Source: Bdellovibrionales bacterium (GTDB taxonomy: Bacteria; Bdellovibrionota; Bdellovibrionia; Bdellovibrionales; JAUICD01). Taken from it: a stretch of DNA of 64,000 nucleotides. The position numbers were made by a program, and so were the translations under genes. The DNA is taken from contig CBDANC010000014.1 of NCBI GenBank assembly GCA_965197425.1, positions 317,662 to 381,661 on the forward strand. Reading direction: 5' to 3'. Shown piece by piece: positions 3,433 through 59,650 of this stretch (position 1 is the stretch's first letter; each line of letters opens with the position of its first letter). Below the pieces are notes generated by a model, which did not search any database, was not told the origin of the DNA, and was given only the letters and a program-made list of their open reading frames with translations.

Positions 3433-4604
3433 CTTATTCCTTGCCTTAATGTTTCTAGTAGCTCTTTATATAATAGCTCCTTTTCTTCGCTGGTGAGCTC
3501 TCCTTGAAATTCTGGGTGTTCTGGATCAAACTCAATGAACTCATCTAATAGAAGATTATAGTCTTCAAGCTTAGCAAATTCTCCTTTGGACATAGATAAG
3601 CCAGCAACTCCACCACCTAAAATATACCCCGTATGCCCAGTGACATAAGCCGATGACAAGGTACCAATTGCCGGAACCACACGCGTAGATGCTTGGACTC
3701 CATTTGCTAAAGATGTATTTGCCCATCTATTAGAAACATTAGACCAGTTGACTCTACCAAAAGATATCTTGGAAATAACTTTGTTTGCACCCCACCTAAC
3801 TGCTCCACCTACAGGTCTTCTGAACCGCGCTCCAGCCAAAAAAGAAACAATACCAATAATAGCTCCTGCGGCACCTTTATTGTTCTCCCACTCATACATA
3901 TCAATATTTTTTCTCTGTTCTATACGAGCAGCAAAAATAGATATCTGTTCTACAACATAATCCACATCTATATTAGTGGGTTTATCATCGTTGGGCCTTG
4001 CTTCAATAACTTGATCAAGCAACAAGCTAACCAAAAAAGAATCATAGTTTGCAGCTCCAAGATCATTTAAGAAAAAAGCTTCTACGGGCCTATCCAAACT
4101 AGATTTGTCAATAATAGCCTGTTTTAGATGGCAAAGCACGGGAGTCATTGGGGCTTGGAATATTGGAAGTTCCTCAAATGTTATATTGTCCCAAACAGCA
4201 CTTCTGTCCTCGAACAAGTACTCTTCGGGTAAAGAATAAGGAAATGTTCTTAGAGAAGAATCATTTTCCAAGTCATCGCAGTCAATTACATCTCCAGGCT
4301 CAGTCGATACATCCTCCAACTCAGCTGCTTTAGCGGTATCAGGTGCAGTCATAACCCTTCTTACAATGTCTTCATTATAAATAAGAAGATTGTCAGGTTC
4401 CTCTAGCTGCTCTTCGGGATCCACAAGTTCTTCGGCTTCTTCTGATTCTGTTTGCTCAGATTCTGGTTCTTCTGCAGCATCAGGCAAACCCGGTTCAGTT
4501 TCAGACTCAGAAGCTTTCTGACAACCCAATACCAAAAAAGCCAGTATCAAAAAATAGCCAGTGCAAATAAGTAAAGACCTAAACCTCATGACATCACATT
4601 TCAT
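3429..4604 (-). CDS. hypothetical lipoprotein with glycine-zipper-like segment, first gene of the operon
   Basis: The ORF track extends to 4649, but the ATG at 4604 (MKCDVMRFRSLL...) has AGGAGG 9 nt upstream. Lipobox LAFLVLGC. GAAGAIIGIVSFLAGA and GGGVAGLS resemble glycine-zipper segments. Confidence 0.6.
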   Translation of the reverse strand: MKCDVMRFRSLLICTGYFLILAFLVLGCQKASESETEPGLPDAAEEPESEQTESEEAEELVDPEEQLEEPDNLLIYNEDIVRRVMTAPDTAKAAELEDVSTEPGDVIDCDDLENDSSLRTFPYSLPEEYLFEDRSAVWDNITFEELPIFQAPMTPVLCHLKQAIIDKSSLDRPVEAFFLNDLGAANYDSFLVSLLLDQVIEARPNDDKPTNIDVDYVVEQISIFAARIEQRKNIDMYEWENNKGAAGAIIGIVSFLAGARFRRPVGGAVRWGANKVISKISFGRVNWSNVSNRWANTSLANGVQASTRVVPAIGTLSSAYVTGHTGYILGGGVAGLSMSKGEFAKLEDYNLLLDEFIEFDPEHPEFQGELTSEEKELLYKELLETLRQGIR

Positions 4605-4792
4605 GGCGTGGAACCTCCTGACACTAAGCCAAAGCCTGCACCAAAACATAACTCAAAACTAAGACCCACATCTTAATAAAACTAAACTCTTGTATTATTT
4701 ATAAACCTAGGCTGTTTTTGTAAGCCTTATTGTCACCAGATATTTTTTTTAAATAGAAAATTGCAAGCCCGACTGCCAGATAAGGGTCAGTG

Positions 4793-5891: not shown

Positions 5892-5910
5892 TTGATCGTA
5901 TAAAAGGTTC
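5892..5910 (+). repeat. right copy of the 19-nt direct repeat bracketing the TA cassette
   Basis: Identical to 4793-4811. Its last base is the first base of the stop codon (complement) of the 733-aa gene. Confidence 0.8.
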
Positions 5911-8111
5911 TATCTAGTTTTACAAATATGCATGCTCCACATACACAGTCTATTGTTTTTGTTTGTCTCTATAAATTGTGTAACATCAGATAAAAGAGAG
6001 TATTGACACGCATCAGATATCATGGGCGTATCTATATTACGAATGTGACGTCTGGTACACTCGGGAAATAGTTTGTCTTTAAGCTCCCCAACTTTTACAA
6101 GAGGAACCCTCACTTTACATACATTAGGAAAAGCATAGAATTTCTTCCAATTGCACAACTCCAATCCAGGTGCAAGATCTGCCATAAAAGCAGCTATCCG
6201 TTCTTCACCTTTAGATTTGGGCATACAAACTTCAGGATCTTCAACCGGCCCTTCATCTCTTATTGCACTTTTTTGAGCACGACTACATTCTAGGATTTCG
6301 GCTTGTGCAATTTCTCCACTAGGTTCTTCATCCTTTTGTCGGCCTTGTGTTTGTGCATGATCAGATCTGCTTTCCGTAATAGGAGGGGTGGGCTGCCTAG
6401 GAATGGAGGGAACATTAGTTTCAGCATTATTATCAGGTTCAGCTCTTGGCTGTTGTTGTGCCACTCTAGGTTGCCGTTCCGTTAATTTAGGCTTTTCTGT
6501 TCTAGGTTGTGATTCTGCTACTCTTGGTTGCTGTACTGGCTCAGGTTCTTCTACTATCCTTTCCCATCTATCTCCACAGGTTGTGTTATTGCACTCTGAT
6601 ATAGGCCATTTAAAGTGCTTACTATCGGTTTCTCTACACCCTACATTAGATTCAATTCCAACTGTCCCACACATTACCTCCAAATGAATATGATCTTCAT
6701 GATATGCATAAGGGTACGTTTTTTCTAAGGCATCTTTATATTTATCAAGCTCTCCTATTTGTCTAGCTACTTTTACTAGGTTAGCCTTTACATAAGGAGA
6801 AATTATAAATCTATTAATTGTACCTGTATCATAGAACTCTTTTATTAATTTTAAGTTGTTTAAACTATCATCACGACTCAAAGCTATTCTGTTGTTTGAA
6901 GTTACAATATCTGTAAAAGGATCGCTATCATCTGTTATATATGATATATCCACGTCCAAACCATTTTGATGGGTTTTGTGAAACTGATCTGGATTGCTTA
7001 AATAAGGTAATCTTCCACCTTCTTCATTAGCAGACTTGTTAACCACTATAGTTATAGAACATCTACCTAATAGCCTCCCTTTAAACTGTTCTCCTGTATA
7101 TAACAATACAGCATTTAAAAGAGCAGATGCATATCTAACCGTTCTCTTTCTAGTACTATTATCTGCCCATTTTACGCAATGGCTCGGATCATTAACTAAG
7201 GGTTCTCCATTTAATAAAAGTCCTCGCGCCTTAACTTCTTCTCCTCCAACCTCCACTGACTTTTCAACACGCATATTAAAAGGTCTTGCAAAGGTATTCA
7301 TACTACCTGCTCTATTCAGGCTAAATAAAGTTGCCCCATCACCGCCTGCTTGCACTCTAACACTGTCTGATGGAATTACAGAGGATATATTTACATTGTT
7401 TCGCCTTCTAAGGTTGCTGAGATACTCTGTCCAATGCTCGACAAAATCATTGGAGGCTATAGAGGGTTGGTTTTCCAAAAACTCATCCATCTGATCATCT
7501 GTTACCTCTAGTCTTCTTGCTACTGATTGTACATTTGTTTGAGTTATGTATTCTGCTTGCCTTCCACCTTCTGGATCTGGATCTGAATCTTCTAAATACA
7601 CCACTGGTTTATTTATCGCATCAGAATAAGTTTCGGTTTGTATTGTTTTAAGTTTATCGTTGGAATCTATATAAAATAAATCAACTATCACATGGCCACA
7701 ATTAGATGATTGGCAATTTCCGTACCCACCAACTCTATCTTCTTCACCACCTGCAAATAACTCCACACTCCCCGACTCATTAACAGCTCCTGTTAAAGTT
7801 ACTTCTTTTGTTTCATCACCTGTTTGTAAATTAAAGCTTACTTCCATAGTTTTTTCATCAGAATCCGGTGAATCGTTAATCTTAAGGGATACATCCGATA
7901 TTTGACTTTTTGTTTCATAGTGTACTGTATTTACAGTTGTCACATGACCTTGTCTAATTTTATGCTCTCCTATAACCATCAAAACTTCAGTCTCCCTTTG
8001 ACCACAAGAAGGAAAGAAACTAAAAAACAAAGCTAAGAGCAAAAGCGCGAATGAAGTCTGGGTTAACCTAGACTTTAAAAAAGTAGACTTGATAAACGAA
8101 CGAAATTTCAC
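5910..8111 (-). CDS. MepA-like (peptidase M74 / LAS-fold) murein endopeptidase-domain lipoprotein with long N- and C-terminal extensions
   Basis: GTG start and lipobox FFPSCG. HKTHQNGLDVDISYI, RFIISPYVKANL and HEDHIHLEVMC align with E. coli MepA GHASHQTGLDVDI / RIFVNPAIKQQL / HRAHMHVRLRC (from memory). A P/Q-rich repeat (QPRVAESQPRTEKPKLTERQPRVAQQQPRAEP) and a Cys-containing C-terminal domain follow. Confidence 0.7.
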   Translation of the reverse strand: MKFRSFIKSTFLKSRLTQTSFALLLLALFFSFFPSCGQRETEVLMVIGEHKIRQGHVTTVNTVHYETKSQISDVSLKINDSPDSDEKTMEVSFNLQTGDETKEVTLTGAVNESGSVELFAGGEEDRVGGYGNCQSSNCGHVIVDLFYIDSNDKLKTIQTETYSDAINKPVVYLEDSDPDPEGGRQAEYITQTNVQSVARRLEVTDDQMDEFLENQPSIASNDFVEHWTEYLSNLRRRNNVNISSVIPSDSVRVQAGGDGATLFSLNRAGSMNTFARPFNMRVEKSVEVGGEEVKARGLLLNGEPLVNDPSHCVKWADNSTRKRTVRYASALLNAVLLYTGEQFKGRLLGRCSITIVVNKSANEEGGRLPYLSNPDQFHKTHQNGLDVDISYITDDSDPFTDIVTSNNRIALSRDDSLNNLKLIKEFYDTGTINRFIISPYVKANLVKVARQIGELDKYKDALEKTYPYAYHEDHIHLEVMCGTVGIESNVGCRETDSKHFKWPISECNNTTCGDRWERIVEEPEPVQQPRVAESQPRTEKPKLTERQPRVAQQQPRAEPDNNAETNVPSIPRQPTPPITESRSDHAQTQGRQKDEEPSGEIAQAEILECSRAQKSAIRDEGPVEDPEVCMPKSKGEERIAAFMADLAPGLELCNWKKFYAFPNVCKVRVPLVKVGELKDKLFPECTRRHIRNIDTPMISDACQYSLLSDVTQFIETNKNNRLCMWSMHICKTR

Positions 8112-8267
8112 ACATTACGGATCGGATTAAAAATTTAAGATCTAAACGTGGCAAACAAATAACAAAATAATCGCCACACAATATTGTTAAGAATAAATTT
8201 TGATCAAAGATAATTATTATTTAAAGCTATAATTTAGTACAGGTTTATATACTTAAGTACAGTACTA

Positions 8268-9932
8268 TTAGATATCATCAATCCTACTTTCTGATGTGGG
8301 GTTTGTATCTGTGTTTTCTTCTTCTTGTGCATCATCCACTGGCGTAGGAGTTACACCAGGATCTTCTTGTTCATTATCTGCTGGTGTTAGAGTTGTACTA
8401 GGGTTGTTTTGTTCTTCACCCCAACAAACATTGTCATTACACCAATCTACAAGCCATGTTCTGCTGGATGCAGAAGTATCTCTACATCCTCTGTTTTCCG
8501 TTACACCTTTATTCGGTACTGTACCACCAGCAGCACAGATTATTTCCAAATGCATGCGGTCTTTGTATTTAGGAGCTGGATGTGGATAAATTTTTGACAG
8601 GGTATCTTGATATATTGATAAATTGCCCTCATCTTTTGATAGCTTTACAAGCTGTGCTTTTATTTCAGGTGATGTTACAAATCTATTAACCATACCCGTA
8701 TCATAAAAATACTTCATTAATGAGCGCTGCCATTTTAAATAAGAACCCCCTAGAGTAAAAGTTCCTTCATCATCGACTGTACTTGCAAATAGTCCTTGCC
8801 TGCTTTGAGGAGTTATATAGGCTATATCTACATCTAAACCATTTTGATGAGTTTCGTGATGTCCATTACCACCTAATAAAGTAAGTTCACCACCTTTTTG
8901 ATTAGAGGCCTGACCTAAAACAATGTTAATAGAGCATGCTCCTCCACGCTTAAGTTTTTGCCCCACAAAAAGTAGTGTGGCATTTAAAAGCGAAGAAGCA
9001 TATCTATGCTCTTCGTTAATTGTTGACAAACTATCTTCCGGATTTTTACTCCATATAATACAATGCTCTTCACTGTCCACAAGCTTCTCTCCATTCAATA
9101 GTATCCCAGGTATTGTCAGATCCTGCTCATTCACTATGATTTCTTGTGAAAGCCTCATGTTTATGGGTCTTGCAAAAGTATCCGTTGGTGCATCTGAACT
9201 CAACGTAATAAAGTCTCCATCAGTACCAGAATAATTGGTTTCTATTGCATCTGAAGGAAGCTCTGATGATATATTTTTTCCAGTACTTTCAAGAGTGTTA
9301 AGATATGACTTCCAGTATGAAACAAAAGCATCAGAAGCAACTCTAGCTGGGATTACCGGTCCAATAATTATATTTCCAGGCCTTGTTCCGTCATTATTAT
9401 TAGCTGGGTTTTCCGGTTCATTAAATACCACATTTGAGCCTCTGGTACTCCTTCCTTGCACAGTTTGTTCTTGGTCATTCTTGTCCTTATAAGTTATTTC
9501 TATAGTTACAATATCACTACAATCTTGAACAAGACAACTTACAGCTCCTCTCACACTATCAGAGTGCTCTTCGTTTTTTACCTGAGCAATAAGAGGATCG
9601 CCATCTGTTCCAAAAGCACCCATTAGTTCAAGTTCTAGAATATCCCCACTTTCTCCACCGTCTTTCATGTACATTAAACCTACAGTAGCTTCTGTAGGAT
9701 CTTTTGTATCCTCAATTTTGAATGAAACATCTTTAATATAGTCACTATATTCAATAGGAGCAGTCATATGTCCATCCCTTGTTGGGTGAGACTCAACAAC
9801 AGTAATAGTTCTCAAATTACGTGAACCACACGATGGAAACCAGCTAAATAATATAACCACACCAGCCAAGACAAATAGTGTCTTTGCAACTTTAGATTTT
9901 AAAAATTTAGCTTTCTTAAATAAGGAATTCAC
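8268..9932 (-). CDS. MepA-like (M74 / LAS-fold) lipoprotein, shorter paralog
   Basis: GTG start with AAGGAG 6 nt upstream and lipobox WFPSCG. HHETHQNGLDVDIAYI, RFVTSPEIKAQL, KDRMHLEIIC. Collinear with the upstream paralog along most of its length. Confidence 0.7.
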   Translation of the reverse strand: MNSLFKKAKFLKSKVAKTLFVLAGVVILFSWFPSCGSRNLRTITVVESHPTRDGHMTAPIEYSDYIKDVSFKIEDTKDPTEATVGLMYMKDGGESGDILELELMGAFGTDGDPLIAQVKNEEHSDSVRGAVSCLVQDCSDIVTIEITYKDKNDQEQTVQGRSTRGSNVVFNEPENPANNNDGTRPGNIIIGPVIPARVASDAFVSYWKSYLNTLESTGKNISSELPSDAIETNYSGTDGDFITLSSDAPTDTFARPINMRLSQEIIVNEQDLTIPGILLNGEKLVDSEEHCIIWSKNPEDSLSTINEEHRYASSLLNATLLFVGQKLKRGGACSINIVLGQASNQKGGELTLLGGNGHHETHQNGLDVDIAYITPQSRQGLFASTVDDEGTFTLGGSYLKWQRSLMKYFYDTGMVNRFVTSPEIKAQLVKLSKDEGNLSIYQDTLSKIYPHPAPKYKDRMHLEIICAAGGTVPNKGVTENRGCRDTSASSRTWLVDWCNDNVCWGEEQNNPSTTLTPADNEQEDPGVTPTPVDDAQEEENTDTNPTSESRIDDI

Positions 9933-10701: not shown

Positions 10702-12804
10702 ATGACTAATCCACTAAGTTCAAATTTTTTTCAGTTCACATTAGCATCGTTTTTTGTGCTTTTTTTGGCTAGCATTGCCAACGCTCAATGCTTGGTATCC
10801 CCTCGTGGAGATGAGAGTTGGGCAAACCTTCCTGTATATGAGGCGGCTTTTATAAGAGCTGCAGAGAAGGCTGATGGGAGCTGCTTAATACACATGTTGG
10901 AAGAAGAGCAGGTGAACATAAATGTACAAGATGATAGAGGGAACACCGCAGTTATTTTATTGGCCTCAAGACCAGGAATAATACCAGCGGATTTGGTTAA
11001 AAAGCTAGTTACATATGCTTACATAGATCTGACTATTAGAAATAATGGAGGATTAAATGTCTTCGATATGGCTAGCTATGGTAATCAAAGGGTGCTTCTT
11101 TTTTTAAATGAATTACTTGCTGATCATTCTAGTACTTTTTTGGATTCTATTGCCAATAGAAATATACAAGCAGTCCAAAGAGCAATTAACTTTGGTGTAG
11201 ACCCTAACATTAGACATGAAGGTCCTAACGGTGAGACTGCTCTAATGGTTGCTGCTAGAGCAAGATATCTTCCTGTGGCTGAAGCTATTTTGAATTCATC
11301 TACTCCTGTGGATATAAACTACCAGCTTGATAACGGAGAAACAGCCTTAATGATTGGTGTACATAGCTGGCATATGGTTGACACACTTTTAGAGCGTGAA
11401 GACATAGATGTAAATATTGAAGATTTAAATGATAGAACTGCATTAATTCATGCAGTTTTTGATAGAAACAACAGTTCTGTTAGACGTCTATTACAAGTAG
11501 AAAACATAGATGTTAATGTAACAGATGTGGGTGGGGAAACAGCACTTTTAGCAGCTAAAAGACTTAATGAACCGGAAATAGTAAACATCTTAAAGCCTTA
11601 TGTTTCGATGGCGTTACACAAAGCTAGTATCGAGGGTGATGTCAGCACTGTGAATTCTATTATATCTCAAATTGTACATGACAATACACCAGATGCAAAC
11701 ACCAGTGATCTTATAAACTCAAAGGACTCGAACGGAAACACTCCTTTAATGAATGCTGTCTTGAGTGAGAGTGAATCAAAAAATACTGTGGTTCGTACTT
11801 TAATTTCTGCATCAAACATTGATTTAAATGCTTCCAATCAAAGAAAAGAAACAGCTCTACTACTTGCCGCGAGGGTTGGGGATTCATCTGCTTTTAGACA
11901 GATCTTATCCTCTGACAAATTAGAAGATGTAAATGCTCGGGATAGATATGACAGAACTGCACTGATGAATGCCTCTCTTTCTGGAGCATTAGAAATTGTG
12001 AATCAACTTTTGACTTTTGAAGGAACTAATATCGGCATTAGGAACAGGTCTAATGAGTCAGCTAAGAGAATTGCAGAAAGACTCGGTCACTCAGATATAG
12101 TAGCCGTATTAGAGGAAGCTGAGATCGTAGCAAAAGAGAAATTTTTTGAAGCTTCTAGATCAGGAGACATGGAAGCGTTAAGGTTATATCAAACTGGATT
12201 TGATATAAATATAAGAGAAGAAAATAGAGATGGCAGTACTGCTTTGATAAATGCTGCCAGAAGTGATCATACATCTATGGTAGAAGAGTTATTAAAATTC
12301 CCGAATATAGATGTAAATGCTAAATCATATGATGGTTCTACAGCTTTGACTGCGGCTTCACAGCTTGGACATGCAGATGTGGTCAATCTACTTATAAATA
12401 ATGTCGAAACCCATTTAGATGTATTTGGTAAACAAGGAAGAACTGCCTTTATGTGGGCTGCTATCTCTGGCAATAATATCATTATTATTAATAACCTCAT
12501 GGCAAAGAACGCTGATCTTACCCTTGAAGACAAAGAACGCGGGTTTACTGCATTGATGTTTGCAGCTCAGAGAAGAAAAATAAGTGTTCTTGAACGAATT
12601 CTACCTCATAAAGACGTAGGTGTATCTGATATAGAAAAAGCCATGGAGGTGACAAGAAGCGGGGAAGTGTTAGATTTGTTAGAACAGCACAGACTTGATA
12701 AAATGACTGTTGGTGAAAGAATTAGCAATTGGTGGAAAAAACACTTTTCAGGAGGATCGGAAGCTTTCTCTTTCGAACCCTTTCCAAGAAATGAAATTTA
12801 TTGA
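10702..12804 (+). CDS. secreted ankyrin-repeat protein (700 aa)
   Basis: GGAGG 8 nt upstream of the ATG. Signal peptide FFVLFLASIANAQC. More than 12 ANK units recognisable (GNTAVILLA, GETALMVAARA, GETALMIGV, DRTALIHAV, GETALLAAKRLNEPEIVNIL, GNTPLMNAV, ETALLLAARVGD, RTALMNASLSGALEIVNQLL, GSTALINAARSDHTSMVEELL, GSTALTAASQLGHADVVNLLI, GRTAFMWAAISGN, FTALMFAAQRR). Confidence 0.85.
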   Translation: MTNPLSSNFFQFTLASFFVLFLASIANAQCLVSPRGDESWANLPVYEAAFIRAAEKADGSCLIHMLEEEQVNINVQDDRGNTAVILLASRPGIIPADLVKKLVTYAYIDLTIRNNGGLNVFDMASYGNQRVLLFLNELLADHSSTFLDSIANRNIQAVQRAINFGVDPNIRHEGPNGETALMVAARARYLPVAEAILNSSTPVDINYQLDNGETALMIGVHSWHMVDTLLEREDIDVNIEDLNDRTALIHAVFDRNNSSVRRLLQVENIDVNVTDVGGETALLAAKRLNEPEIVNILKPYVSMALHKASIEGDVSTVNSIISQIVHDNTPDANTSDLINSKDSNGNTPLMNAVLSESESKNTVVRTLISASNIDLNASNQRKETALLLAARVGDSSAFRQILSSDKLEDVNARDRYDRTALMNASLSGALEIVNQLLTFEGTNIGIRNRSNESAKRIAERLGHSDIVAVLEEAEIVAKEKFFEASRSGDMEALRLYQTGFDINIREENRDGSTALINAARSDHTSMVEELLKFPNIDVNAKSYDGSTALTAASQLGHADVVNLLINNVETHLDVFGKQGRTAFMWAAISGNNIIIINNLMAKNADLTLEDKERGFTALMFAAQRRKISVLERILPHKDVGVSDIEKAMEVTRSGEVLDLLEQHRLDKMTVGERISNWWKKHFSGGSEAFSFEPFPRNEIY

Positions 12805-30607: not shown

Positions 30608-30759
30608 TTGGTGGAGTACAAAATATAATGTATGTTTTCACCACCATTAAATGCCTCCACCCGCAGGGTGGTGCCTTACGGCACAGGTATTTAATTGGTG
30701 GAGTACAAAATATAATGTATGTTTTCACCACCATTAAATGCCTCCACCCGCAGGGTGGT
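30608..30759 (+). repeat. tandem pair of identical 65-nt units (30608-30672, 30695-30759; period 87 nt) upstream of glnS
   Basis: Unit is ttggtggagtacaaaatataatgtatgttttcaccaccattaaatgcctccacccgcagggtggt. It contains the hairpin ccaccc-gca-gggtgg. A diverged third copy of the 3' part lies at 32734-32778. Confidence 0.9.
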
Positions 30760-32408: not shown

Positions 32409-32585
32409 CACTGAAAAACCATTGACAACAAACTGTCTTCGCTAGTTTTTGGCGGCGGCCCAACGTTGCACAAGGTCTTCGCACACGTTCCAACATTGAT
32501 TAAATCTGACCATAAACTGTATTTTATTAGGATTTTCTAAAAAAAGTTATAGCAATGTGTATCTTGTTTGCTATGATCTTGTTTC

Positions 32586-35500
32586 ATGGGATGGGGCTTT
32601 CAAAACAAAAACCTTCACAAGGGTATCGACAGTTGTAACACCAACAGTGCTAGTGCTGTTGATGTTGTTGGCGAAGAAGTTAATGCTAAAAACTTTAGTA
32701 ATAACAAATATTTAGCTCCCCCCCCCCCCCCCCAATATAAATTTCCACTATTAAAATGTCTCCACCTGCAAGGTGGTGGGTACTCCACTGGTGGTGGTTT
32801 TACTTTAATAGAGACTGTAGTTGGTTTAGCCTTAGTATCCATATCTGGTTTTGTAGTTACATTTATATCTGGTCAGATGAACACGGCATCTAAGTTGACT
32901 GATGATTCCTATGAATGTGCAGCTATAGCTACTAATGTAATGGAGAGATTTTCTCAGGGTGGCTTAGAGCCTATTGTTTTGCTTAACTCAGAGCATTTCC
33001 CTGGTACTCCTCCTACTGATTTTGAAGCAGCTATAGAAGAAAGAAGCACTATATCTGTAAACACTAGTGGAGAGGCTACTCATAATGCTGGTCCTAATCT
33101 TGTTATAGAGCCTCATGGTAGTAATAGTCACATTACTTTGAAAGTAGATAAGTTTCATAGAGGTAGTGGTGTTAGTTTAGTAGAAGATTTATTTAACGAG
33201 TACCGTTCTACCATATGTCCATCTAATGTAGATAACCTGACCTTTGATCTTGCTAATGATATGGTGATTACCTACAAGGCTGGTAACACTGCTAAGCTGA
33301 TAGACTTACATAAGAAGCTAGATGATGTAAAACCAGCAACTCCAGGACCTGAACCTGATTACTATAAGGAAATGGCTGATGCTAATTTATCTTCTAATAA
33401 CTATGCTTGGGATACTTTTACCTCTGAGTACTTATATGGTTTATCCAAGAGTCTCAAAAATGCCTTAAATTTGCATCTCTTAGCAGGTTTTACTGATTAT
33501 AGTACTAGTTATACTAATACTGCTCAGCCATATGATGTGAAGATAGGTATAAGGCCTTGGAGTTTATCTAATCGTAGTGCTCTTGGTTGTACTGATACTA
33601 AGGTTCATCCAGCAGTCTTTTTAAGACCTGGTTCTAAATATGACAGATACATTACAGATAGTATTTTAGGCACCAACGAATTAGAGAGACAGAATAAGAT
33701 TGGTTATAAGCTGGAGAGGAGTCTAACTTCAGCTAAGATGAGGTCAGATGTAGGTTTGAAGTTATTTGTTGAAGTTAAAACAAGACCTGGTGTGGATAAG
33801 TTAGAAAGATCCTGTAAGTCAAATAAGTTATTTGCTTATGCTAACAGCTTTGCAGTTCCTCCATCTAGAAGACCTGTATATGTTCACCATGACAGAGAGA
33901 TTAAAGATGGTTCTAATGATTTTATAGCTTCCACAACTCACCCTCTTCAAAACAACCCTGGTTTAAATGTTGGTTATAAGTATGGTGCTGCTGATTCTAT
34001 CCCTACTAAGCCTGATGGTGCTACTCATGCTACTCTTAGTGATTATGCTACAGAAGCTACATTAAACTTTAGGAATATTGGTAAGGTTTGGAGAGATGTA
34101 AACAACCCTAGTTCCTTTGCTGATGATGAGGAAGATTTTAGAGGGGTCTTTTTATGTGGTTTTGAGAAGAATCGTTTTGAAGACTGTGTTAAAGGCCCCC
34201 CCGATTGTGATGATATACCAGGTTTAAGCTCCTATAGGACTTTTGGTACTAATGGTGCACATAAGGCTGGTATAAGAAGCTATGATACTGAGTATGGTAG
34301 TAGAGATGGCTCCGTAAACTCATCTAGGAGATGGGATTTATGTGAGAACTTTAAGCTTACCCCCAGTCAATCTAATAATTCTACCACACTAAAAGCCAGT
34401 GCATCCAATGTAGATGATGGTAAGTTAGGACTTGAGTTAGATAATTTAAATGTATCCAGTTGGCCTGATGAAGATCAGGATGCTGATTATAGAGTTAGAT
34501 TTAAGTTAGTAGATGAATATGGTAATGATTACTCTGCCACAGAAAATGGACAGATACAGGAGGATGATTATACCGAGGAGCATAGAGTTTTTGCCTACAA
34601 CTGTGCACAGTTTGGTAATACTCATGCTTCTGGTAGTTATCAAAATCCCCCTATAGGCTGTGGAGTTATAAATCCTGATCCTAATATTGCTAAGTACAAC
34701 CGTAGGATAGATAATCCTTTCTATAATACCCAAGCAGATTGTGAACATCAGTTTAACCTACTTTCCAGCCCCAGTGCTCAATGTGTGAAAGTTACTAATA
34801 TTAGGGTTTACAATGATTATTTTGATGATTCCATAGAGGAGAGGACAGGTCCTGCGAACAGCCCTGTTCGTCCTGTTAATGGTACTGGAGTTACCTGTGA
34901 TTATTGGGTTGAGCAATGTGTAAAAGATGGTACAGCCTGTGTGCAATGTGGCCAAGGTTATATGCGTGATTATCCTAATGCCACAAGACAATCTTGTCAT
35001 GGAGGTTCTGCAAGCTTAGGTGGAGTTACCTGTTATAAAGCAGGCTCTCATTGTTGTCATAATGATTATGGTAGTTTTAACTGTTTTACAGGTAAGGATC
35101 CTTGTTCAAATCCTAATGGTTGTGGATTTAACCAAGATCCTACCTGTGGAGCTACCTGTGGTGATAACGGCCACGGATGTAATATTTGTACAGGAGCTAC
35201 TCCTTGTAACACAGCTGGTTGTGATAGTTGTAGTTTTGGTACTGCTGGAGTTTGTCAATATAAGTGTAGTTTCCCTACTCAGTACTGTGATGGTGCTAGT
35301 AATTGTGTAGAATGTCTGAATGACGGCCACTGTGGTGGTAATGATATATGTTGTTCTTACAGTTGTAAGGCCCCATGTAGTCCAGATTCTGATCAATGTG
35401 AGGAGTGTGCTAGTGATTGTGCATCTCCTCATTCAATATGTGGTTCTGGTGAAGGGTGTAATGGTAGTGGGTGTTGTGTAGAGCTACCGCCTTGGTGTAA

Positions 35501-52859: not shown

Positions 52860-54020
52860 TTAATTACCTGATGTTGATTGACGAATTAAATCCCCAAGTG
52901 TGTTCCAGCCTAAAGCTTCGTCATCGTCAAGATCTCCCAAACTACATTTCTCAATTTCAGCTCTGCTATCTTCAGAGTAGATATAAAAACCGTTGTCGTT
53001 GGCAATTTCTTTTAAGTTCTCGCATATCAAAGGCGTAATATCAAGTAATGCAAAGTTCCTACCTAACAAGTTATCAGATGGAGCAGCACCTATATTCATA
53101 GGCATAATTAAACTTCTGATAACTCCAAGCTCCAATGATCTAGAAAGAATCCTATCTCCAAAAGCATTAGGATTAGCAATTTCAACCAATGCTCCGTTCT
53201 GAATATGTTCATGACTGAAAGTTCCGTTTAGCCCCCAAGAATACGCTGGGATTACCCGAACTAAAGATGAAAACGGGTGGGCATCTACAACCATAACATG
53301 TGCAAGAGGGCGTCTAGTTGTCTTAGTAAACCCAAGATACCTAGAGTTACTATCACAAGGAATTCCACTAAACGAGTGTTTTATATTGTGTATCATAAAC
53401 ACATCGCCTTCCTTCACATTGGCGCGGCTACCAGTCGAAATATAGAAATGATCAGTGAAAGCGTCTGGCTTTTGCACAACCCTACTTCTCCACTCATCTC
53501 CATAGTTGTTATTTACATCATCAACAGCCTTTCTGACTCCATCCTGTAAAGCATTCCGAATAAGATCATTGATAGGGGTGGCCCTAACATGATCCAAACA
53601 TACTCCACCAGACACAATACCTGAAGCACTTGCATTTCCACAGTACAACTCACCATTCCTAACATATAAGTCAAATTGCCATTTTTTGTTTTCCTCTTTT
53701 GCCTCGGAACTTGTCCTAACGAGTTCATAATGATCTTGAGCCGCAATAGTAATTGCTGTACTCATAGACAATTTTGCAGAAGTAGCAATAAATCCTGTAC
53801 TAAAAAAACTTAAAAAACCCCTTAGCAAATCAAATCCCATAACGTGGTTATTTTCGGTAAATACCTCTAAGCTAAGTGCGGTATTATGAATTCTATAATC
53901 TGTATAAGAGTTCAAACAACTATCCATAGATGAGGTGTACCTAGCTCTATCAACCTCTGTCTGAGCCTCAGATAAATAAGGCACCACAACCAATACCAAA
54001 CATAAAAGAAATTTCTTCAT
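52860..54020 (-). CDS. hypothetical secreted protein (paralog 1)
   Basis: Signal peptide LCLVLVVVPYLSEA-Q. Collinear with 54416..55747 from DRARY(T/I)SSMDSCLN onward. No family recognised. Confidence 0.65.
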   Translation of the reverse strand: MKKFLLCLVLVVVPYLSEAQTEVDRARYTSSMDSCLNSYTDYRIHNTALSLEVFTENNHVMGFDLLRGFLSFFSTGFIATSAKLSMSTAITIAAQDHYELVRTSSEAKEENKKWQFDLYVRNGELYCGNASASGIVSGGVCLDHVRATPINDLIRNALQDGVRKAVDDVNNNYGDEWRSRVVQKPDAFTDHFYISTGSRANVKEGDVFMIHNIKHSFSGIPCDSNSRYLGFTKTTRRPLAHVMVVDAHPFSSLVRVIPAYSWGLNGTFSHEHIQNGALVEIANPNAFGDRILSRSLELGVIRSLIMPMNIGAAPSDNLLGRNFALLDITPLICENLKEIANDNGFYIYSEDSRAEIEKCSLGDLDDDEALGWNTLGDLIRQSTSGN

Positions 54021-54184
54021 AACCCCTCCCCAAAAAAATTACAAACCGACACAAATTCTACCATTCTCACAAGAGAACAGGTCAACTCTTAAAATCAATC
54101 CACTAATATTATTATTTATCTAACGTTTTGAAATGTGCAAAATATGAGCAAACAATTTCGAGTACGGCATTTAGAATGCTCTTA

Positions 54185-54263
54185 CTTCTATTTTGTCATC
54201 TGTTAAAAGAAGTTTGCTTTCTGTATCATAAACCTGCTTAACACAAACTGCTATCTTCATCAC
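54185..54263 (-). pseudogene. duplicated 5' fragment of etfB (first 26 codons)
   Basis: 54185-54426 is identical by eye to 52629-52870 (offset 1,556). The copied reading frame stops after about 30 codons. Confidence 0.75.
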
Positions 54264-54356
54264 TTAAAGGTAACACATGTATTAGTTCCTTCAAGATATT
54301 TAAGTTGCAAGAAATCTTTGTTATGCTCAATTAAATTTCATACATCAAAATTAAAT

Positions 54357-54390
54357 AAAAAAAGGTAGGCCAATTAACCTACCTTTTTTC
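54357..54390 (-). terminator. duplicate of the bidirectional terminator
   Basis: Same sequence as 52801-52834, within the 242-bp perfect duplication. Downstream of paralog 2. Confidence 0.7.
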
Positions 54391-54415
54391 TTTTACACTA
54401 GCTTTAACTATTAAA

Positions 54416-55747
54416 TTAATTACCTGTTGTCGGTGGCACACCACTGTTACCTTGGCCAAGAGCTTGAGAGGCCTGAGACGTAACTGTGTCACCTAAACTT
54501 TGACGAATTAAGCCCTCAAGTGTGTTGCCACCAAAACCCTCGTCATCGTCAGGATCTTCCCAAAATATTCTTTCTAAAGTAGCTTCGTCTGCACCACATC
54601 TTGCAATTTCAACCCTGCGATCCTCAGAGTAGATGTAAAAACCATTTTGATTTGCAACTTCCCTTAGGTTTTCACATATCAAAGGCGTAATGTTAAGCAA
54701 TATAGAATTCCTACTACTTAACAAGTTGCCAGATTGACTTGAAGGAGTTAAATTAGCTGCTTCTCCACCTCCTGATGGAGCAGTAGCTGTATTCATAGGC
54801 ATGATTAAGCTTCTGATAATTCCAAGCTCTAAGGATCTAGAAAGAATTCTATCTCCAAAAGCATTAGGGTTAGCAATTTCAACCAATGCCCCGTATTGAA
54901 TGTGTTTGTGACTTGGAACTCCATTTAGATCCCAAGAGTACTCTGGTATTACTTGAACCAAAGATGAAAATGGGTGGGTATCTATAACCCTAACATGCGC
55001 AAGGGGGCGTCTGGTTGTCTTAGTAAATCCAAGATACCTAGAATTAACATCACAAGGAATTCCACTAAACGAGTGCTCTATATTATATATCATAAACACA
55101 TCGCCTTCTTTTACATTTGCATAGTTGCCAACTGGAACATAGAAATGATCGATGAAAGCATCCGGTTTTTGTACAACCCTACTTCTCCACTTATCTCCAT
55201 ATTTATTATTCACATCATCAACAACCTTTCTAACTCCATCTCGTAAAGCATTTCGAATAAGATCATTAATAGGGGTGGCCCTAACATGATCCAAACATAC
55301 TCCACCAGACACAATACCTGAAGCATTATCATTTCCACAGTCTAACTCACCATCAGCTCTAACACCTATGTGAAATTGCCATTTTTTGTTTTCTTCTTTT
55401 GCCTCAGAATTTACCCTAACAGCTTCATAGTAATCTTGAGCTGTGGTAGTAAGGGCTGTACTCATAGACAACTTTGCAGAAGTAGCAATAAATCTTGCAC
55501 TAAACAAACTCAAAAAACCCCTTAGCAAATCAAATCCTAAAGCGTGGTTATTTTCGGTAAGCACCTCTAAGCTAAGCACGGTATTATGAATTCTATAGTT
55601 TGCATAAGCGTTCAAACAACTATCCATAGATGAGATATACCTAGCTCTATCAAACCTACCAAAGAGTCCGCCTGTATTTACATTTTTGCAGGCCACACTA
55701 GATACAAGAATAACTAGAGCTAAAAATGAATATTGTATTGTTCTCAT
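54416..55747 (-). CDS. hypothetical lipoprotein (paralog 2)
   Basis: Lipobox VSSVAC. Homologous to paralog 1 but with insertions (e.g. SGGGEAANLTPSSQSGN) and a longer Gly/Ser/Gln-rich C-terminus. Confidence 0.65.
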   Translation of the reverse strand: MRTIQYSFLALVILVSSVACKNVNTGGLFGRFDRARYISSMDSCLNAYANYRIHNTVLSLEVLTENNHALGFDLLRGFLSLFSARFIATSAKLSMSTALTTTAQDYYEAVRVNSEAKEENKKWQFHIGVRADGELDCGNDNASGIVSGGVCLDHVRATPINDLIRNALRDGVRKVVDDVNNKYGDKWRSRVVQKPDAFIDHFYVPVGNYANVKEGDVFMIYNIEHSFSGIPCDVNSRYLGFTKTTRRPLAHVRVIDTHPFSSLVQVIPEYSWDLNGVPSHKHIQYGALVEIANPNAFGDRILSRSLELGIIRSLIMPMNTATAPSGGGEAANLTPSSQSGNLLSSRNSILLNITPLICENLREVANQNGFYIYSEDRRVEIARCGADEATLERIFWEDPDDDEGFGGNTLEGLIRQSLGDTVTSQASQALGQGNSGVPPTTGN

Positions 55748-55891: not shown

Positions 55892-55965
55892 TGGAGGTGA
55901 CGGCCGGATTCGAACCGGCGTAAGAGGTTTTGCAGACCCCGGCCTAACCACTTGGCTACGTCACC
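55892..55965 (-). tRNA. tRNA-Cys (GCA)
   Basis: The reverse complement reads GGTGACG-TA-GCCAAGTGGTTAGGC-...GGGGT-CTGCAAA-ACCTC...CCGGTTCGAATCCGG-CGTCACC-TCCA. 7-bp acceptor stem, GCA anticodon in a 7-nt loop, GGTTCGAATCC T-arm, U73 discriminator and encoded CCA. Confidence 0.9.
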
Positions 55966-56292: not shown

Positions 56293-57687
56293 TTAGGTTA
56301 TCCATATCATTTCATGTGGCATTTTTCTTCTCACACTTCTCAAATAATCTCTAGGCGATATATTTAAAAAATCACTTACTCTTGGCATATAGATACATGA
56401 ATACCTAATAACCTGCCTTGCAAAAAAACTTTCCTCATTACCCATTCTCATAATTTCACCCCAATGCAAATTAAAGGCACTTTGAATATTTTGTATATTT
56501 TCTCTTATCTTGAGATCAATATTGCCAATTTGAGTTTGAAGCTCTCTAAACTCCTCTTCAGAAACACTAAGCCCTGTTTCTTTTTGCTTGGTTACTATAT
56601 CTACCATTCTTTCTTCCAACGGCTGTTTTTTTTGCATTAAGGCTTCAACCTCCGAATTCAACGGACTGGTTTTAACCAACGCATCTAATTCATGATCTAA
56701 TTCTTCCACAACCAATCCAGTTCTCCAATTGCACTCCTTTTTAAGCCTTACAATATCTCCATATATGTGATCCCCTATATACAATATGTCTTCTTCATTT
56801 AGATTCATGTTTTTAGTAAATGTTTTAGCATTTCCGCCCTGAAACACACCTTTTGTAATGACTTGTTTGTTGTTTGTCATAGTATTAGTATTTGGATCTA
56901 TGCTTAAAAAGGGAATGTCATCATAAAAAAACCTGGGCTTATCCCCTCCTGTTATAATTATATCAAACAGATCAAGCCAATGTTTATGATTAGATAAAAA
57001 AGGCAAAATGGTATAGTCCAAAAGCATCTTTGCGTACTCATAAAAAGAATTTGTAAGTAAAAACAATTTTTTTCCATGAGCTTTAAATCTCTCAAGACCC
57101 TTCACCACATCCGGATCTTGTATAATATAATTTTTGATATCGTTTTCTACTACACCTTTTATGCTCCAATCACTATGACACTCATTAGTGCAATACCTCA
57201 CATCTTCTGCAATTTCTTGATAGGCAGGCAGAGATTGAAATAAACTAGTGTCCTTTAAATCTACAAGCTGAGAAAACAAAAGAGCTATCGCAACCGAAAA
57301 CCCACTGTTTATAAAAAAGTAGTTGTCTAACCTAGAGTCTATATATATATCATGATGTTGTTTTTTTAAACCTGTATAGCTTATTTTTTTTGTCCCGTGG
57401 GCTTTTAATCTTATTTTGCCAAATTGGTTTAGCTTTAAAACATCTCCATTTTTAGAGTCCAATACTAGGCCACGAATTACATTATCAAAGTCATATTTTA
57501 AATTCATAATTTCTTCAGGATATCCTTTAAGGGAAATTAATTTTTTTAAAACATGCTTGTAGGTTAATTCTTCAAATTTTCTAGTATTATATCTTACAAG
57601 GGTATGATCCATATCAAACCCAACATATTTGATCTTTCTTAAGTTTAAAGTTCTATTAATAAAAACTCTTGATTTTGTTTGATTCAA
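56293..57687 (-). CDS. HAD-superfamily cytosolic purine 5'-nucleotidase (cN-II / NT5C2-like family)
   Basis: TTG start. VFINRTLNLRKIKYVGFDMDHTLVRY (DMDxT motif I), FLLTNS, ILYIGDHIYGDIVRLKK, WRTGLVVEEL are collinear with human NT5C2 as I recall it. Confidence 0.85.
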   Translation of the reverse strand: MNQTKSRVFINRTLNLRKIKYVGFDMDHTLVRYNTRKFEELTYKHVLKKLISLKGYPEEIMNLKYDFDNVIRGLVLDSKNGDVLKLNQFGKIRLKAHGTKKISYTGLKKQHHDIYIDSRLDNYFFINSGFSVAIALLFSQLVDLKDTSLFQSLPAYQEIAEDVRYCTNECHSDWSIKGVVENDIKNYIIQDPDVVKGLERFKAHGKKLFLLTNSFYEYAKMLLDYTILPFLSNHKHWLDLFDIIITGGDKPRFFYDDIPFLSIDPNTNTMTNNKQVITKGVFQGGNAKTFTKNMNLNEEDILYIGDHIYGDIVRLKKECNWRTGLVVEELDHELDALVKTSPLNSEVEALMQKKQPLEERMVDIVTKQKETGLSVSEEEFRELQTQIGNIDLKIRENIQNIQSAFNLHWGEIMRMGNEESFFARQVIRYSCIYMPRVSDFLNISPRDYLRSVRRKMPHEMIWIT

Positions 57688-57770: not shown

Positions 57771-57849
57771 TGAAGCCTCATTAAGCTCACCTTTGTTAAA
57801 AAAAGGTAGGCGTAGCCTCCTTGTTTTTGGCCTCATTAGCCTCACCTTT
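57771..57849 (-). repeat. two inverted A-module 5' termini flanking a terminator-like hairpin
   Basis: gaagcctcattaagctcaccttt (57772-57794) and ggcctcattagcctcaccttt (57829-57849). The second contains the TGA stop of the 602-aa gene. Confidence 0.75.
57798..57828 (-). terminator. rho-independent terminator after the TadG-like gene
   Basis: aaaaaaa-aggtaggc-gta-gcctcctt-gttttt. An imperfect 8-9 bp stem with a T run on the minus strand. Confidence 0.55.
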
Positions 57850-59650
57850 GTATTAGATTTTTAATTTTTCCTCTAATACCTTCACCCCCCAACGGAAGGT
57901 CTCTTTCTAGGTATTTCCTAGAGATGAGTTTTGCCGAGTATCCAACTCTGCCTCCAACTGAGCAACCTCCTGGAATTTTCCCTTCACTTTTACAGTAAGC
58001 AAACATTTCACCTGCCGCATTTTGATTCTCTCCACTTGCCATAGTAGGATTCCAACTACTTAACAGATGACTCCAATCTTGTAGCACCCATGGAGCATTT
58101 GGCTTATAATCATTAATTGATGTTTTTATAGATACATAAGCATCTGGTTTTTCTAAAGACATTACACTTTGATAATTTTCTATCTCATCTGGCTCTATTG
58201 AATAGTATGTGGCATCAAACACATTGGGGACCATTGCACTTAGTTCGGATACTCCTATGGGTGCCAGATCGCTTCGTATATAGTTTTTTCTTTCATAACG
58301 AAGTCTTACTCCCTGCTCATTTTTATCAACTAAAAATGCCAATAAATTTTCTTTTGAATTTAATCCTTCACCATCTCCAGGGTACAATGAATAGTTAGGC
58401 ACTAATCTTTCATGTGAAATTTGGTTTGTTCCAATATCAGTAGCGGCAGGAGGAAGCAGTTTATCCAAAGCTTTATCAAAAGAAACATCTGATTTGTCAC
58501 TGCCACGATGCCATGTACTATACATCCAAGGGCCTATGCTTCCTCCAAATGGTTTTGCATAGCTTTCCGCTGTTAGTGCTACTGGTTTTCCTAAAGGTGC
58601 AAACACTTTTCTAGGAGTAGAAATTGCATTAACCTTAGCATATACAACATGCCACGGGTTTTTCTCATAACCTAAAGTAAATGTTTTTTCTAATATTGAA
58701 TCATCTACATTTCCATATTTTTTATAAGTTGGTAGAGTTTTAGCTTTATCACCGCTTCCATAGTGAGTGATTACTTTGGGGAATATGGTACATCCACCAC
58801 CTGGTCTATAAACTGAATCAGCATATAAAATTATTGGCACAAGATTGATCTGATTAAACATACTTTTACTGTCTTTTAGAGGGTTTACAAAAAATGGACC
58901 TTCTTTGAGGGCTGCTAGGTTAGAGCGAGTCAAGTTTCCCATTAGAGTATTTGAAACTCCGTCTTCAATTTTATTCCCCTCTAAATCTTCGCCATTTTTT
59001 AACTTTTCATGTAACTCTTCAAATTTTTTGCTTTGTTCAATAGAATAATTATGAAACTGTTCTATCCATTTGTATCCGGCAAGCCAATTAGCACTTCCCG
59101 CTAACTCACATTGTGTTTTAGATTCCGCCTGCGCTCTTTTTGAGAGCGCTAGTGCCATTTCATTTAATTTTCCTATAAAACCAAATTTGGCTATATTTGT
59201 TAAAGTGGGGAGCTCTGGCAATGTAGTATTCAAATTCTTACACAAGTTGCCAGTAAGGTCCGTTTTCACATCAGGATGTACATAATCCCAAAAAGCATGA
59301 TTGGTGCATATGCTGGGAAACTCATTTGAGTTATCATCATATACTTTTCCTTCACCTTTTTTTTGAAATGGATGAGCTAATCTTCCAGAATCTCCAATTG
59401 CTCTTACTCTGTAAGATAAGAGCTTCCAGTTTTGTTTCATCTTGTAATTTATATGTGCCATTAGGTTTAAAATTTCAGCCTGTTTAGTGGCAGCATAATA
59501 AGATGCTAAATCAACTGAGTTTTGTAAATTAATTTTGTCGTGTACTACTAGACCAATGTTTATGGTCATTGCAAAAAACACAAATAGAACCTGAAAGATT
59601 AAGACTATAAATATAGACATTTGTCCTTTTTGATAAGCTCTACTAGGCAT
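57842..59650 (-). CDS. TadG-like protein (N-terminal Flp pilus-assembly TadE/G-like domain)
   Basis: GQMSIFIVLIFQVLFVFFAMTINIGLVVHDKINLQNSVDLASYYAA matches the Tad N-terminal domain pattern (TM + ...LQnAaDaAALA). The remaining ~540 aa are unassigned. Confidence 0.65.
   Translation of the reverse strand: MPSRAYQKGQMSIFIVLIFQVLFVFFAMTINIGLVVHDKINLQNSVDLASYYAATKQAEILNLMAHINYKMKQNWKLLSYRVRAIGDSGRLAHPFQKKGEGKVYDDNSNEFPSICTNHAFWDYVHPDVKTDLTGNLCKNLNTTLPELPTLTNIAKFGFIGKLNEMALALSKRAQAESKTQCELAGSANWLAGYKWIEQFHNYSIEQSKKFEELHEKLKNGEDLEGNKIEDGVSNTLMGNLTRSNLAALKEGPFFVNPLKDSKSMFNQINLVPIILYADSVYRPGGGCTIFPKVITHYGSGDKAKTLPTYKKYGNVDDSILEKTFTLGYEKNPWHVVYAKVNAISTPRKVFAPLGKPVALTAESYAKPFGGSIGPWMYSTWHRGSDKSDVSFDKALDKLLPPAATDIGTNQISHERLVPNYSLYPGDGEGLNSKENLLAFLVDKNEQGVRLRYERKNYIRSDLAPIGVSELSAMVPNVFDATYYSIEPDEIENYQSVMSLEKPDAYVSIKTSINDYKPNAPWVLQDWSHLLSSWNPTMASGENQNAAGEMFAYCKSEGKIPGGCSVGGRVGYSAKLISRKYLERDLPLGGEGIRGKIKNLIQR

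Follow-up and report, generated by a model that had tools for sequence, protein, structure and literature searches.

A giant cysteine-rich protein with a prepilin-type N-terminus and a homopolymer tract in its leader region: a putative switchable surface adhesin of a very rare bacterial family

How might a bacterial protein of 1,915 residues, whose N-terminus resembles that of a type IV prepilin and whose body ends in an array of cysteine-rich repeats, be brought to the cell surface, and can its production be switched on and off? The question is raised by a single stop-free open reading frame (ORF) of 1,915 codons at positions 32586–38333 (forward strand) of a 64,000-nucleotide stretch of a Bdellovibrionales contig (CBDANC010000014.1, assembly GCA_965197425.1), the whole of which was analysed and is called here the window. 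An initial annotation of the window, made from its letters alone, had described this ORF as single and uninterrupted. That description holds, since the N-terminal part recurs in independent assemblies and the frame is not chimeric, and the encoded 1,915-residue protein is real and of an exported type. Judged from its sequence and from that of related loci (L001, L082 and L083), the giant protein most likely belongs to a very rare family, not described before, and acts as a surface adhesin that can be switched. The probability that it is a phase-variable exported megaprotein for which the whole chain applies, from slippage in the leader region through signal insertion, leader removal and display on a filament to recombination of modules, is put at roughly one half. 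The features on which the argument rests are as follows.

32538–32585, forward strand: conserved upstream block with an extended −10-like sequence, TGcTATGAT (32569–32577), from comparison of the window with L083 and L001.
32586–32795, forward strand: region encoding the leader peptide (amino acids (aa) 1–70, with 6 K/R and 4 D/E), an open frame in several loci.
32718–32733, forward strand: C16 homopolymer in codons 45–50 (PPPPP and the C of CAA), a putative slipped-strand ON/OFF switch.
32762–32776, forward strand: hairpin CCACC-TGCAA-GGTGG, immediately 5′ of the codons for Gly-Phe-Thr; the palindrome is also found twice upstream of glnS.
32796–32879, forward strand: core of the predicted class III signal peptide, G71-F72-T-L-I-E76 with cleavage between G71 and F72, and helix to M98, from the motif, profile models and invariance in the family.
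32880–34895, forward strand: Cys-poor conserved region, aa 99–770, from alignments with relatives.
34896–35852, forward strand: proximal region rich in Cys, aa 771 to ~1089, from alignment of relatives.
35853–38330, forward strand: hypervariable distal Cys-module array, aa ~1090–1915, from alignment of relatives.
36444–37330, forward strand: tandem repeat of 426 bp (142 aa), 2.1 copies at 97% DNA identity, from a repeat scan.

The N-terminal 800–1,090 aa of the protein recur in four other assemblies, as P0002, P0003, P0004 (locus L001) and P0017 (locus L083), and the possibility that the ORF is chimeric or artefactual was rejected for this reason. Four full-length relatives were identified among 5.8 billion protein clusters and nine relatives among 1.84 billion representative proteins; a profile search added five more N-terminal fragments, and one further partial homologue was recovered besides. 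Scans of the JGI metagenomes and of the species genomes in GTDB yielded no relative. With about ten relatives in the protein databases, the family is very rare, and a search of the literature on Cys-rich giant prepilins found no relevant description. Two of the relatives, P0013 and P0016, apparently lie on one 1.24-Mbp contig.

Residues 71–98 had been assigned to a prepilin segment, and this assignment is upheld by the motif, by hidden Markov models (HMMs) and by family-wide conservation. Behind a hydrophilic leader (aa 1–70) that ends in GGG before the Phe, the predicted cleavage site is followed by about 21 mainly hydrophobic residues with a Glu at position +5 (FTLIETVVGLALVSISGFVVTFISG), and aa 71–98 (GFTLIETVVGLALVSISGFVVTFISGQM) constitute the sole hydrophobic stretch of the 1,915-aa protein. 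Isolated N-terminal pieces scored 16.6–18.2 bits with TIGR02532 (cut-off 16.3 bits; 14.5 bits for the first 300 aa) and 17.9–19.8 bits with PF07963 (15.9–19.8 bits over all pieces scored; cut-off 21.2 bits), and the remaining matches of the N-terminus are all to pilin or pseudopilin models (GspI, GspH, ComGF, ComGE, PilV and ppdD-like). At E < 0.1, TIGR02532 was matched by all eight relatives tested (best E 2e-4) and PF07963 by seven of the eight (best E 1.2e-5). The sequence GFTLIET[VLI][VI]G[LF]ALVSISGFVV is retained in P0003, P0004 and P0017, and GFT[LM][LV]ET..G.ALVS..G.VV.F in the distant clade (P0009–P0016 and L082). Across eight family members, G-1, F1, T2, E5, T6, G9 and V-S are invariant, as is the later Y-x-C...A...F...G of the helix, and the invariance of G-1, F1, T2, E5, T6 and G9 holds among relatives that are otherwise 28–50% identical. 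In type IV filaments, Gly-1 marks the site of the prepilin peptidase and Glu5 forms the assembly salt bridge (PMC10191384). Since both residues are invariant in the family and a plain membrane anchor would need neither, the N-terminus is accepted, as a sequence-based assignment, as a class III (prepilin-type) signal peptide.

A leader of 70 aa follows from ATG 32586, which the initial annotation had named as the only canonical start. No other in-frame ATG, GTG or TTG was found between this codon and the motif, the next in-frame start being M98, and the claim is further borne out by open frames in three loci: upstream of Gly-1 the frame is open over 73 codons in the window (P = 0.008), 85 in L001 (P = 0.0045) and 63 in L082 (P = 0.0115), with P values computed from local composition, and the other two frames close within 1–18 codons (13–18 in the window). 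Because the frame stays open over such distances (63–85 codons) in three loci, the 70-aa leader is read as translated and real. L083 has a leader of 74 aa from the same ATG, and an in-frame TGA lies three codons ahead of the ATG in the window and L001. Family leaders are 70, 74, 84 and 97 aa long, with the first ~11 residues conserved (MGW.F.NKN) and the remainder free; the usual prepilin leader has ~5–30 aa. Leader length in prepilins has been described merely as variable (PMC10191384). An SD-like (Shine–Dalgarno-like) AAGGTGG precedes GFT and raised the possibility of internal initiation, either within the motif or shortly ahead of it, which was rejected. The +3 codon of the motif is TTG or ATG in L001 and L082, TTA in the window and CTA in L083; translation must start upstream of the motif, because at the protein level G, F and T do not vary.

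Upstream of the leader, the ~50-nt block TTTGCTATGATCTTGTTT[CT]ATGGG is common to the window, L083 and L001 and almost invariant among them; its flanks diverge, and the leader does so strongly. Its TGcTATGAT element ends 8 nt 5′ of ATG 32586. No SD sequence precedes this ATG, whereas many other genes of the window have one of the AGGAG type. The block may represent an extended −10 promoter, from which the mRNA would perhaps be leaderless.

The Cys-poor region (aa 99–770) is conserved, with 100% identity to P0002, 84% to P0017, 68% to P0004 and 28% to L082, and shares the motifs VTL.VD, EDL.N.Y...ICP, YDV[KR]IGIRPW, GYKL..SL, KLFVEV, GVFLC and LVDEYGN with the family. The α1 helix is predicted to have an amphipathic end that reaches ~aa 125. 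No match to this region was found in Pfam, NCBIfam or the PDB sequences. AlphaFold2 models of aa 71–800 (alignment of three sequences) and aa 71–260 (seven sequences) gave confidence (pLDDT, predicted local distance difference test) values of 26.5 and 32.5, respectively; helices were placed at about residues 3–29 and 36–54 of the mature chain, at a pLDDT of 26–32 that is too low for use. No C-terminal sorting signal was recognisable on inspection of the protein sequence.

Beyond aa 770, the protein becomes rich in cysteine. Its 216 Cys comprise 2 in aa 1–98, 12 in aa 99–770 and 202 in aa 771–1915 (17.6%). The onset of the array, earlier placed at about nt 34890 with 38 Cys in one 190-aa stretch, is corrected to nt 34896 (aa 771), and the richest 190-aa stretch has 40 Cys. 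Because these 202 Cys belong to a domain that is exported solely via the aa 71–98 helix, an oxidising, extracytoplasmic location is suggested. Three modules recur in the array, namely C-x2-[DN]-x-[DS]-C-x3-7-C-x3-7-C-x3-C, G-x-M-[TS]-x-Y-P-...-C-...-TC[YWH] and DGT-x-CGTCGxCxxGxC.

The array is alignable to ~aa 960 in all four full-length relatives, and aa 771 to ~1089 in full is identical only to P0002. Past ~aa 1090 the order, number and length of the modules are completely different from one array to the next. This is true even of P0002, which otherwise matches the window protein exactly and whose distal array contains 8 copies of a 51-aa unit; those of P0003 and P0004 are shorter and otherwise arranged. 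A second, partial family member in L001 (2–3787, forward strand) exceeds 1,261 aa and contains 219 Cys and 8 copies of a 55-aa tandem unit. These comparisons indicate that the array is made of shuffled small modules with strain-specific tandem amplification, and no silent cassettes or paralogues were found elsewhere in the 64-kb window by tblastn or blastn. The N-terminal part of the giant protein is 84% identical between the window and L083 and the neighbouring GlnRS, RplS, YraN and RnhB are 92–97% identical, so that the giant gene evolves faster than the genes that flank it.

The absence of a known bacterial family for the array, as first noticed, is confirmed in Pfam, NCBIfam and the PDB sequences. 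Three array sub-segments had no match in Pfam or NCBIfam to E 10, except for one meaningless match at E = 3.4, and a search of the PDB sequences to E 1 yielded nothing relevant. As far as these sequence searches reach, the array is outside all described Cys-repeat families. The resemblance to eukaryotic EGF, furin and VSP repeats that was originally suggested has no HMM support and is compositional only.

Acceptance of the signal peptide leads to the question of whether the protein is displayed on a filament, and several points weigh against this. A leader of 70–97 aa is far outside the usual prepilin range, and the residues ahead of Gly-1 in the window protein (GGYSTGGG) are non-basic. The window PF07963 score is below the Pfam cut-off, the whole 1,915-aa protein yielded no reported match when searched against Pfam and NCBIfam, and a pilin head fold lacks support from a usable predicted structure. 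In none of the four loci does a gene for a prepilin peptidase or for type IV pilus or type II secretion assembly adjoin the giant gene, the nearest pilus-like gene in the window being a TadG-like ORF 19.5 kb off. If the organism is diderm, as its many lipobox proteins suggest, a body of ~1,800 aa would have to traverse an outer-membrane secretin.

An alternative that draws on the same points is that the giant protein is a signal-anchored type II membrane protein: the helix would be a permanent inner-membrane anchor, the 70–97 aa ahead of it a cytoplasmic tail, and the Cys-rich body would be periplasmic or envelope-spanning, with no filament involved. The unusual length of the N-terminal extension, its translation and its conserved start would suit such a tail, as would the sub-threshold Pfam score, the absence of adjacent pilus genes and the body, which is very large for a protein that has to cross a secretin. 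However, G-1, F1 and E5 are invariant family-wide and the HMM matches are all to pilins; a Glu at position 5 and a fixed Gly are unexpected in a plain transmembrane anchor that is subject to neither peptidase nor assembly constraints. Moreover, only the first ~11 residues of the tail are constrained; the rest is free to vary in both sequence and length and tolerates repeats and a homopolymer, and this free variation is the behaviour of a discarded leader rather than of a functional domain. We consider a permanent anchor somewhat unlikely, and retain the reading in which the leader is removed and the body displayed.

The leader region also holds the C16 tract, which the initial annotation had translated as PPPPP without comment; the hypervariability of the array and the metzincin partner described below had likewise been missed. 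C16 is the sole homopolymer in the 64 kb that meets a threshold of at least 8 for G/C or at least 10 for A/T. Tracts of 13, 16 and 19 C give the full-length frame, and all other lengths from 12 to 20 lead to a stop 2–6 codons on and to a product of 50–56 aa. At the same site, L001 has C9 and P0003 encodes 'PPP', although the tract-bearing window and L001 proteins are only 58% identical overall. The locus thus has the features of a contingency locus, namely a G/C tract of at least nine inside the ORF, a length change that stops translation and a length that differs among relatives. In contingency loci, G/C tracts of at least nine slip at high rates irrespective of function, and with C16 placed within the first 50 codons OFF variants are therefore expected to arise. 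A discarded leader is an ideal home for such a tract.

Candidates for OFF alleles can be recognised in the family. P0002, which is 100% identical to the window protein over aa 98–805 and visibly identical to ~aa 1090, is annotated from M98 (MNTASKL), the first in-frame ATG, GTG or TTG 3′ of the tract, and this start is what a gene caller would be expected to return for a tract that is out of frame. In L082, a G14 run (3833–3846) splits a distant homologue into ORFs of 148 and 988 aa. Addition of one G restores the frame, and the joined protein aligns with aa 179–647 of the window protein (28% identity, E 2e-39). The short relatives P0011, P0012, P0013 and P0015 end alike at '...GGG(G)ATKI' or '...GGGAQI'. 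The L082 split and these shared ends could be phase-OFF alleles, cases of transcriptional slippage or homopolymer errors of long-read sequencing.

Other observations oppose the proposed switch. L083 has no tract whatever at this site, and the intact alleles are all simply in frame. The OFF alleles are deduced from gene calls, and L001, L082 and L083 are apparent long-read contigs of ~3–5x coverage (5x for L082) with other evident frameshifts, in which homopolymer lengths are unreliable. The poly-G relatives all enter the same wrong frame, which is also consistent with systematic under-calling of the tract. These observations are those expected if C16 is a neutral expansion of proline codons, or in part an artefact of assembly, within a leader that can be dispensed with, and if the truncated or split relatives are sequencing errors or pseudogenes. 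Such an account is improbable, however, since G/C tracts of this length slip regardless and C16 would yield OFF variants in any case. It also has to accommodate the occurrence of a single such run in 64 kb of 36% GC DNA, the presence of at least nine C at one site in two proteins as divergent as those of the window and L001, together with the 'PPP' of P0003, the independent G14 in the same gene of a second clade, and the start of P0002 exactly at the post-tract ATG. That long homopolymer tracts occur in these genes is solidly established, whereas the ON/OFF states read from family alleles are suggestive only.

From these elements, the following sequence of events is proposed for the phase-variable reading. 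The mRNA, possibly leaderless, would be translated from ATG 32586, and the ribosome would pass through a 70-aa cytoplasmic leader containing the hypermutable C16. If replication added or dropped one C, the gene would enter the OFF phase, with a peptide of 50–56 aa as the product, and a compensating change would restore the ON phase. While the gene is ON, its class III signal peptide would insert the protein in the inner membrane with its N-terminus inside and its C-terminus outside, a prepilin peptidase would cut off the leader after Gly71, and the Glu5-bearing helix would allow uptake by a type IV filament machine as a modular pilin of low abundance. The filament would then present the ~670-aa conserved domain and ~1,150 aa of disulfide-knotted modules extracellularly, and recombination between repeats would reshuffle or amplify the distal array, such that length, antigenicity or ligand specificity would vary by strain. 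Actual switching, cleavage by the peptidase, incorporation into a filament and adhesin function are what we infer from the genes. A wider proposal, offered tentatively and with less confidence than this chain, is a 'megapilin' class of type IV filament subunits defined by a cleaved leader of 70–100 aa that houses the switch, by disulfide-knot cassettes, by variation of both the ON/OFF and the recombinational size and antigen type and by a dedicated metzincin, and confined to an uncultured lineage that is possibly associated with a eukaryotic host.

The neighbourhood of the giant gene contributes three further features.

38692–38704, no strand assigned: terminator-like hairpin with T runs on both strands, between convergent genes (consensus scan only).
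38807–43339, reverse strand: convergent gene whose product, a repeat protein of 1,510 aa, has a metzincin domain (Reprolysin_5, E 1.5e-6) at its C-terminus.
57842–59650, reverse strand: ORF of 602 aa whose N-terminal domain is TadE/G-like (PF13400, E 1.3e-6, a score that exceeds the gathering threshold).

The giant gene and a metzincin gene are also paired, in the same arrangement, in L082, where the metzincin protein is 34% identical to that of the window (E 2e-101). The metzincin protein of the window begins with a segment that looks like a signal sequence; about 225 aa further in lies 'LATLGLSSCGD' ('LATLGLSSCND' in L082), which resembles a lipoprotein box and is followed by ~180-aa repeats that each start with 'PC.R...GYF.L'. 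In L001, two family members stand in tandem, the partial one directly upstream of the P0004 gene, and no metzincin gene was called; the remainder of that locus consists of fragmented dapF/dapB-like ORFs, suggesting assembly errors or gene decay. This pairing bears on another alternative, in which the metzincin or another protease frees the Cys-rich body from its membrane-anchored N-terminus. The body would then act in solution or in a matrix, and not as part of a pilus. The conservation of the convergent metzincin gene across distant family members, and the fact that both genes encode exported repeat proteins, are consistent with such shedding. Co-location is nevertheless the only link between the two genes, no cleavage motif was identified, and the neighbour in L001 is a tandem paralogue with no metzincin called; shedding is accordingly held to be quite improbable in comparison with display of an attached adhesin.

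The statement that the window contains no pilus genes stands in part: no pilD, pilB–Q or gsp gene was found among the window ORFs scanned, but the TadE/G-like ORF listed above, a pseudopilin-like gene of the Tad/Flp type, departs from it. Otherwise, the window has a GC content of 33–47% (~36% outside the giant gene) and contains ordinary bacterial genes (nuoA/H/J/L/M/N, PDH E2/E3, lipA/lipB, ETF, rplS, rnhB, yraN and glnS). In the window and L083, the giant gene is placed after rplS-rnhB-yraN-glnS; the synteny of its neighbours was matched only by L083. GlnRS is 52–57% identical to the best of its 599 matches, which come from all phyla. A 700-aa ankyrin-repeat protein with a signal-peptide-like N-terminus (10702–12804, forward strand) and a eukaryote-type cytosolic 5′-nucleotidase (56293–57687, reverse strand; PF05761, E 1e-135) are also encoded, and proteins of these two kinds typically occur in bacteria whose partners are eukaryotic cells. 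Together with the lipoproteins and the TadG-like ORF, they are compatible with a host- or prey-associated lifestyle, of which they are no proof. Clusters of lipoprotein-like ORFs lacking Pfam matches were noted at 722–4649, 5910–9932 and 52860–55747 (all reverse strand), together with two paralogue pairs: M74-like proteins of 733 and 554 aa, and proteins of 386 and 443 aa that share 'DRARY.SSMDSCLN.Y'. The sole tRNA gene of the window, tRNA-Cys(GCA) at 55892–55965 (reverse strand), lies 17.5 kb from the giant gene, and its vicinity to a Cys-rich gene is probably a coincidence.

The hairpin in the leader region is part of a small element with further copies in the window. CCACC-N5-GGTGG occurs three times, compared with 0.02 occurrences expected. 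A perfect 65-nt direct repeat with an 87-bp period (30608–30672 and 30695–30759) is located immediately 5′ of the glnS start; each copy ends with ATTAAATGCCTCC and the hairpin CCACCC-GCA-GGGTGG, with ATTAAA(A)TGYCTCC as the 5′ flank, and a related copy at 32750–32778 forms the last part of the giant-gene leader. Upstream of glnS in L083, a short single form only is present. Equivalent hairpins precede GFT in all four loci (CCACC-TGCAA-GGTGG in the window and L083, CACCT-N9-AGGTG in L001 and CCAACC-GTA-GGTTGG in L082), with the 3′ arm coinciding with the G-rich codons that precede Phe1, and the peptides encoded by the hairpins differ (LHLQGGG, SARKVG and DPTVGWG). Two further hairpins, of the form GCYGGC-TGAAA-GCCRGC, are present in L082, and a compensatory pair distinguishes one from the other. 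The fold z-scores of the leader are modest (−1.6 to −2.2), and a known riboswitch or cis-regulatory RNA was rejected as a candidate for want of support from Rfam, which gave nothing to E 1 in the window and only a chance-level match in L082. The element may be an RNA structure with a regulatory role, a hot spot for duplication or simply a small sequence present in several copies. Its own ATGs (30651, and 32756 out of frame) would open short, Pro-rich ORFs situated upstream of or overlapping the genes; the ORF upstream of glnS would start MPPPAGW..., and the one in the +2 leader frame would start MSPPARW....

If display of the giant protein on a filament is correct, the cargo limit of a pilin module moves to ~1,800 aa with ~100 potential disulfides, prepilin peptidase accepts leaders of 70–97 aa, and a switch for phase variation can hide in a leader that is discarded. 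Small Cys-knot modules that lack any database signature would be added as a new family to those described, and an uncultured bacterium would be using a contingency strategy of the Neisseria style. Such a strategy is usually a sign that a bacterium is engaged, intimately and antagonistically, with a host or prey. Were the protein membrane-anchored only, it would still represent a very rare, fast-evolving surface family, of local interest.

Comparison with known systems places the giant protein closest to established designs in two respects, since modular pilin architecture and homopolymer-switched pilus adhesins, the latter classical, were both known beforehand. Modular type IV pilins, such as PilB and PilC of Streptococcus sanguinis, CofB of enterotoxigenic Escherichia coli, TcpB of Vibrio cholerae and GspK of type II secretion systems, are minor subunits for adhesion or ligand binding, and a pilin N-terminus followed by ~1,800 aa fits their architecture. 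They occur widely and are diverse, with over 1,200 proteins in 264 architectures, and extra modules lacking a database signature are common among them (Raynaud et al., 2021; PMC8179133). The original view of a new kind of protein is qualified by their existence and survives in the matter of size: studied examples have ~450–550 aa and the largest surveyed has 860 aa (PMC8179133), and the present 1,915 aa are over twice the latter. Further differences from modular pilins are a leader of 70–97 aa rather than 5–30 aa, a grafted part with ~18% Cys and no recognised domain, and a gene that lies outside any pilus operon context. Glu5 is kept in the giant protein, in contrast to the subunit that caps the tip-located complex of minor pilins, which has none (PMC10191384). 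The large prepilin proteins of Verrucomicrobia and Planctomycetes (for example the Verru_Chthon cassette proteins, TIGR02596/TIGR02599) also have a GFTLIE-type start and are not obviously pilus subunits. Models of this type matched a few family members weakly (E 0.03–0.04) through the shared N-terminal motif only, and the bodies are unrelated, with neither Cys arrays nor long leaders in the Verru_Chthon-type proteins.

The putative switch resembles that of Neisseria pilC1/pilC2 (and Opa) in its logic of slippage at a G/C homopolymer inside the ORF. The pilC tract reportedly lies, following Jonsson et al. in 1991, in the part that encodes the signal peptide; here, the tract is in a leader that would be discarded. 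PilC itself is not a pilin, has a Sec signal peptide and shows no sequence similarity to the giant protein. The G(9–20) tract by which Neisseria pilC, a gene for a pilus-associated adhesin, is switched is likewise genic (PMC5953494). The array recalls the CxxC-rich or tandem ectodomains of Giardia VSPs, Mycoplasma Vlp/Vsa proteins and EGF- or furin-like repeats, in which the number and order of repeats vary by strain as they do in the giant protein, but no HMM or sequence relationship links them. Expression of Mycoplasma Vlp/Vsa is also switched by a homopolymer. Compared with all of these systems, what is new in the giant protein is its scale (1,915 aa and ~200 Cys), the length of its leader, the placement of the switch within that leader, the signature-less cassette array and the tiny size of its family.

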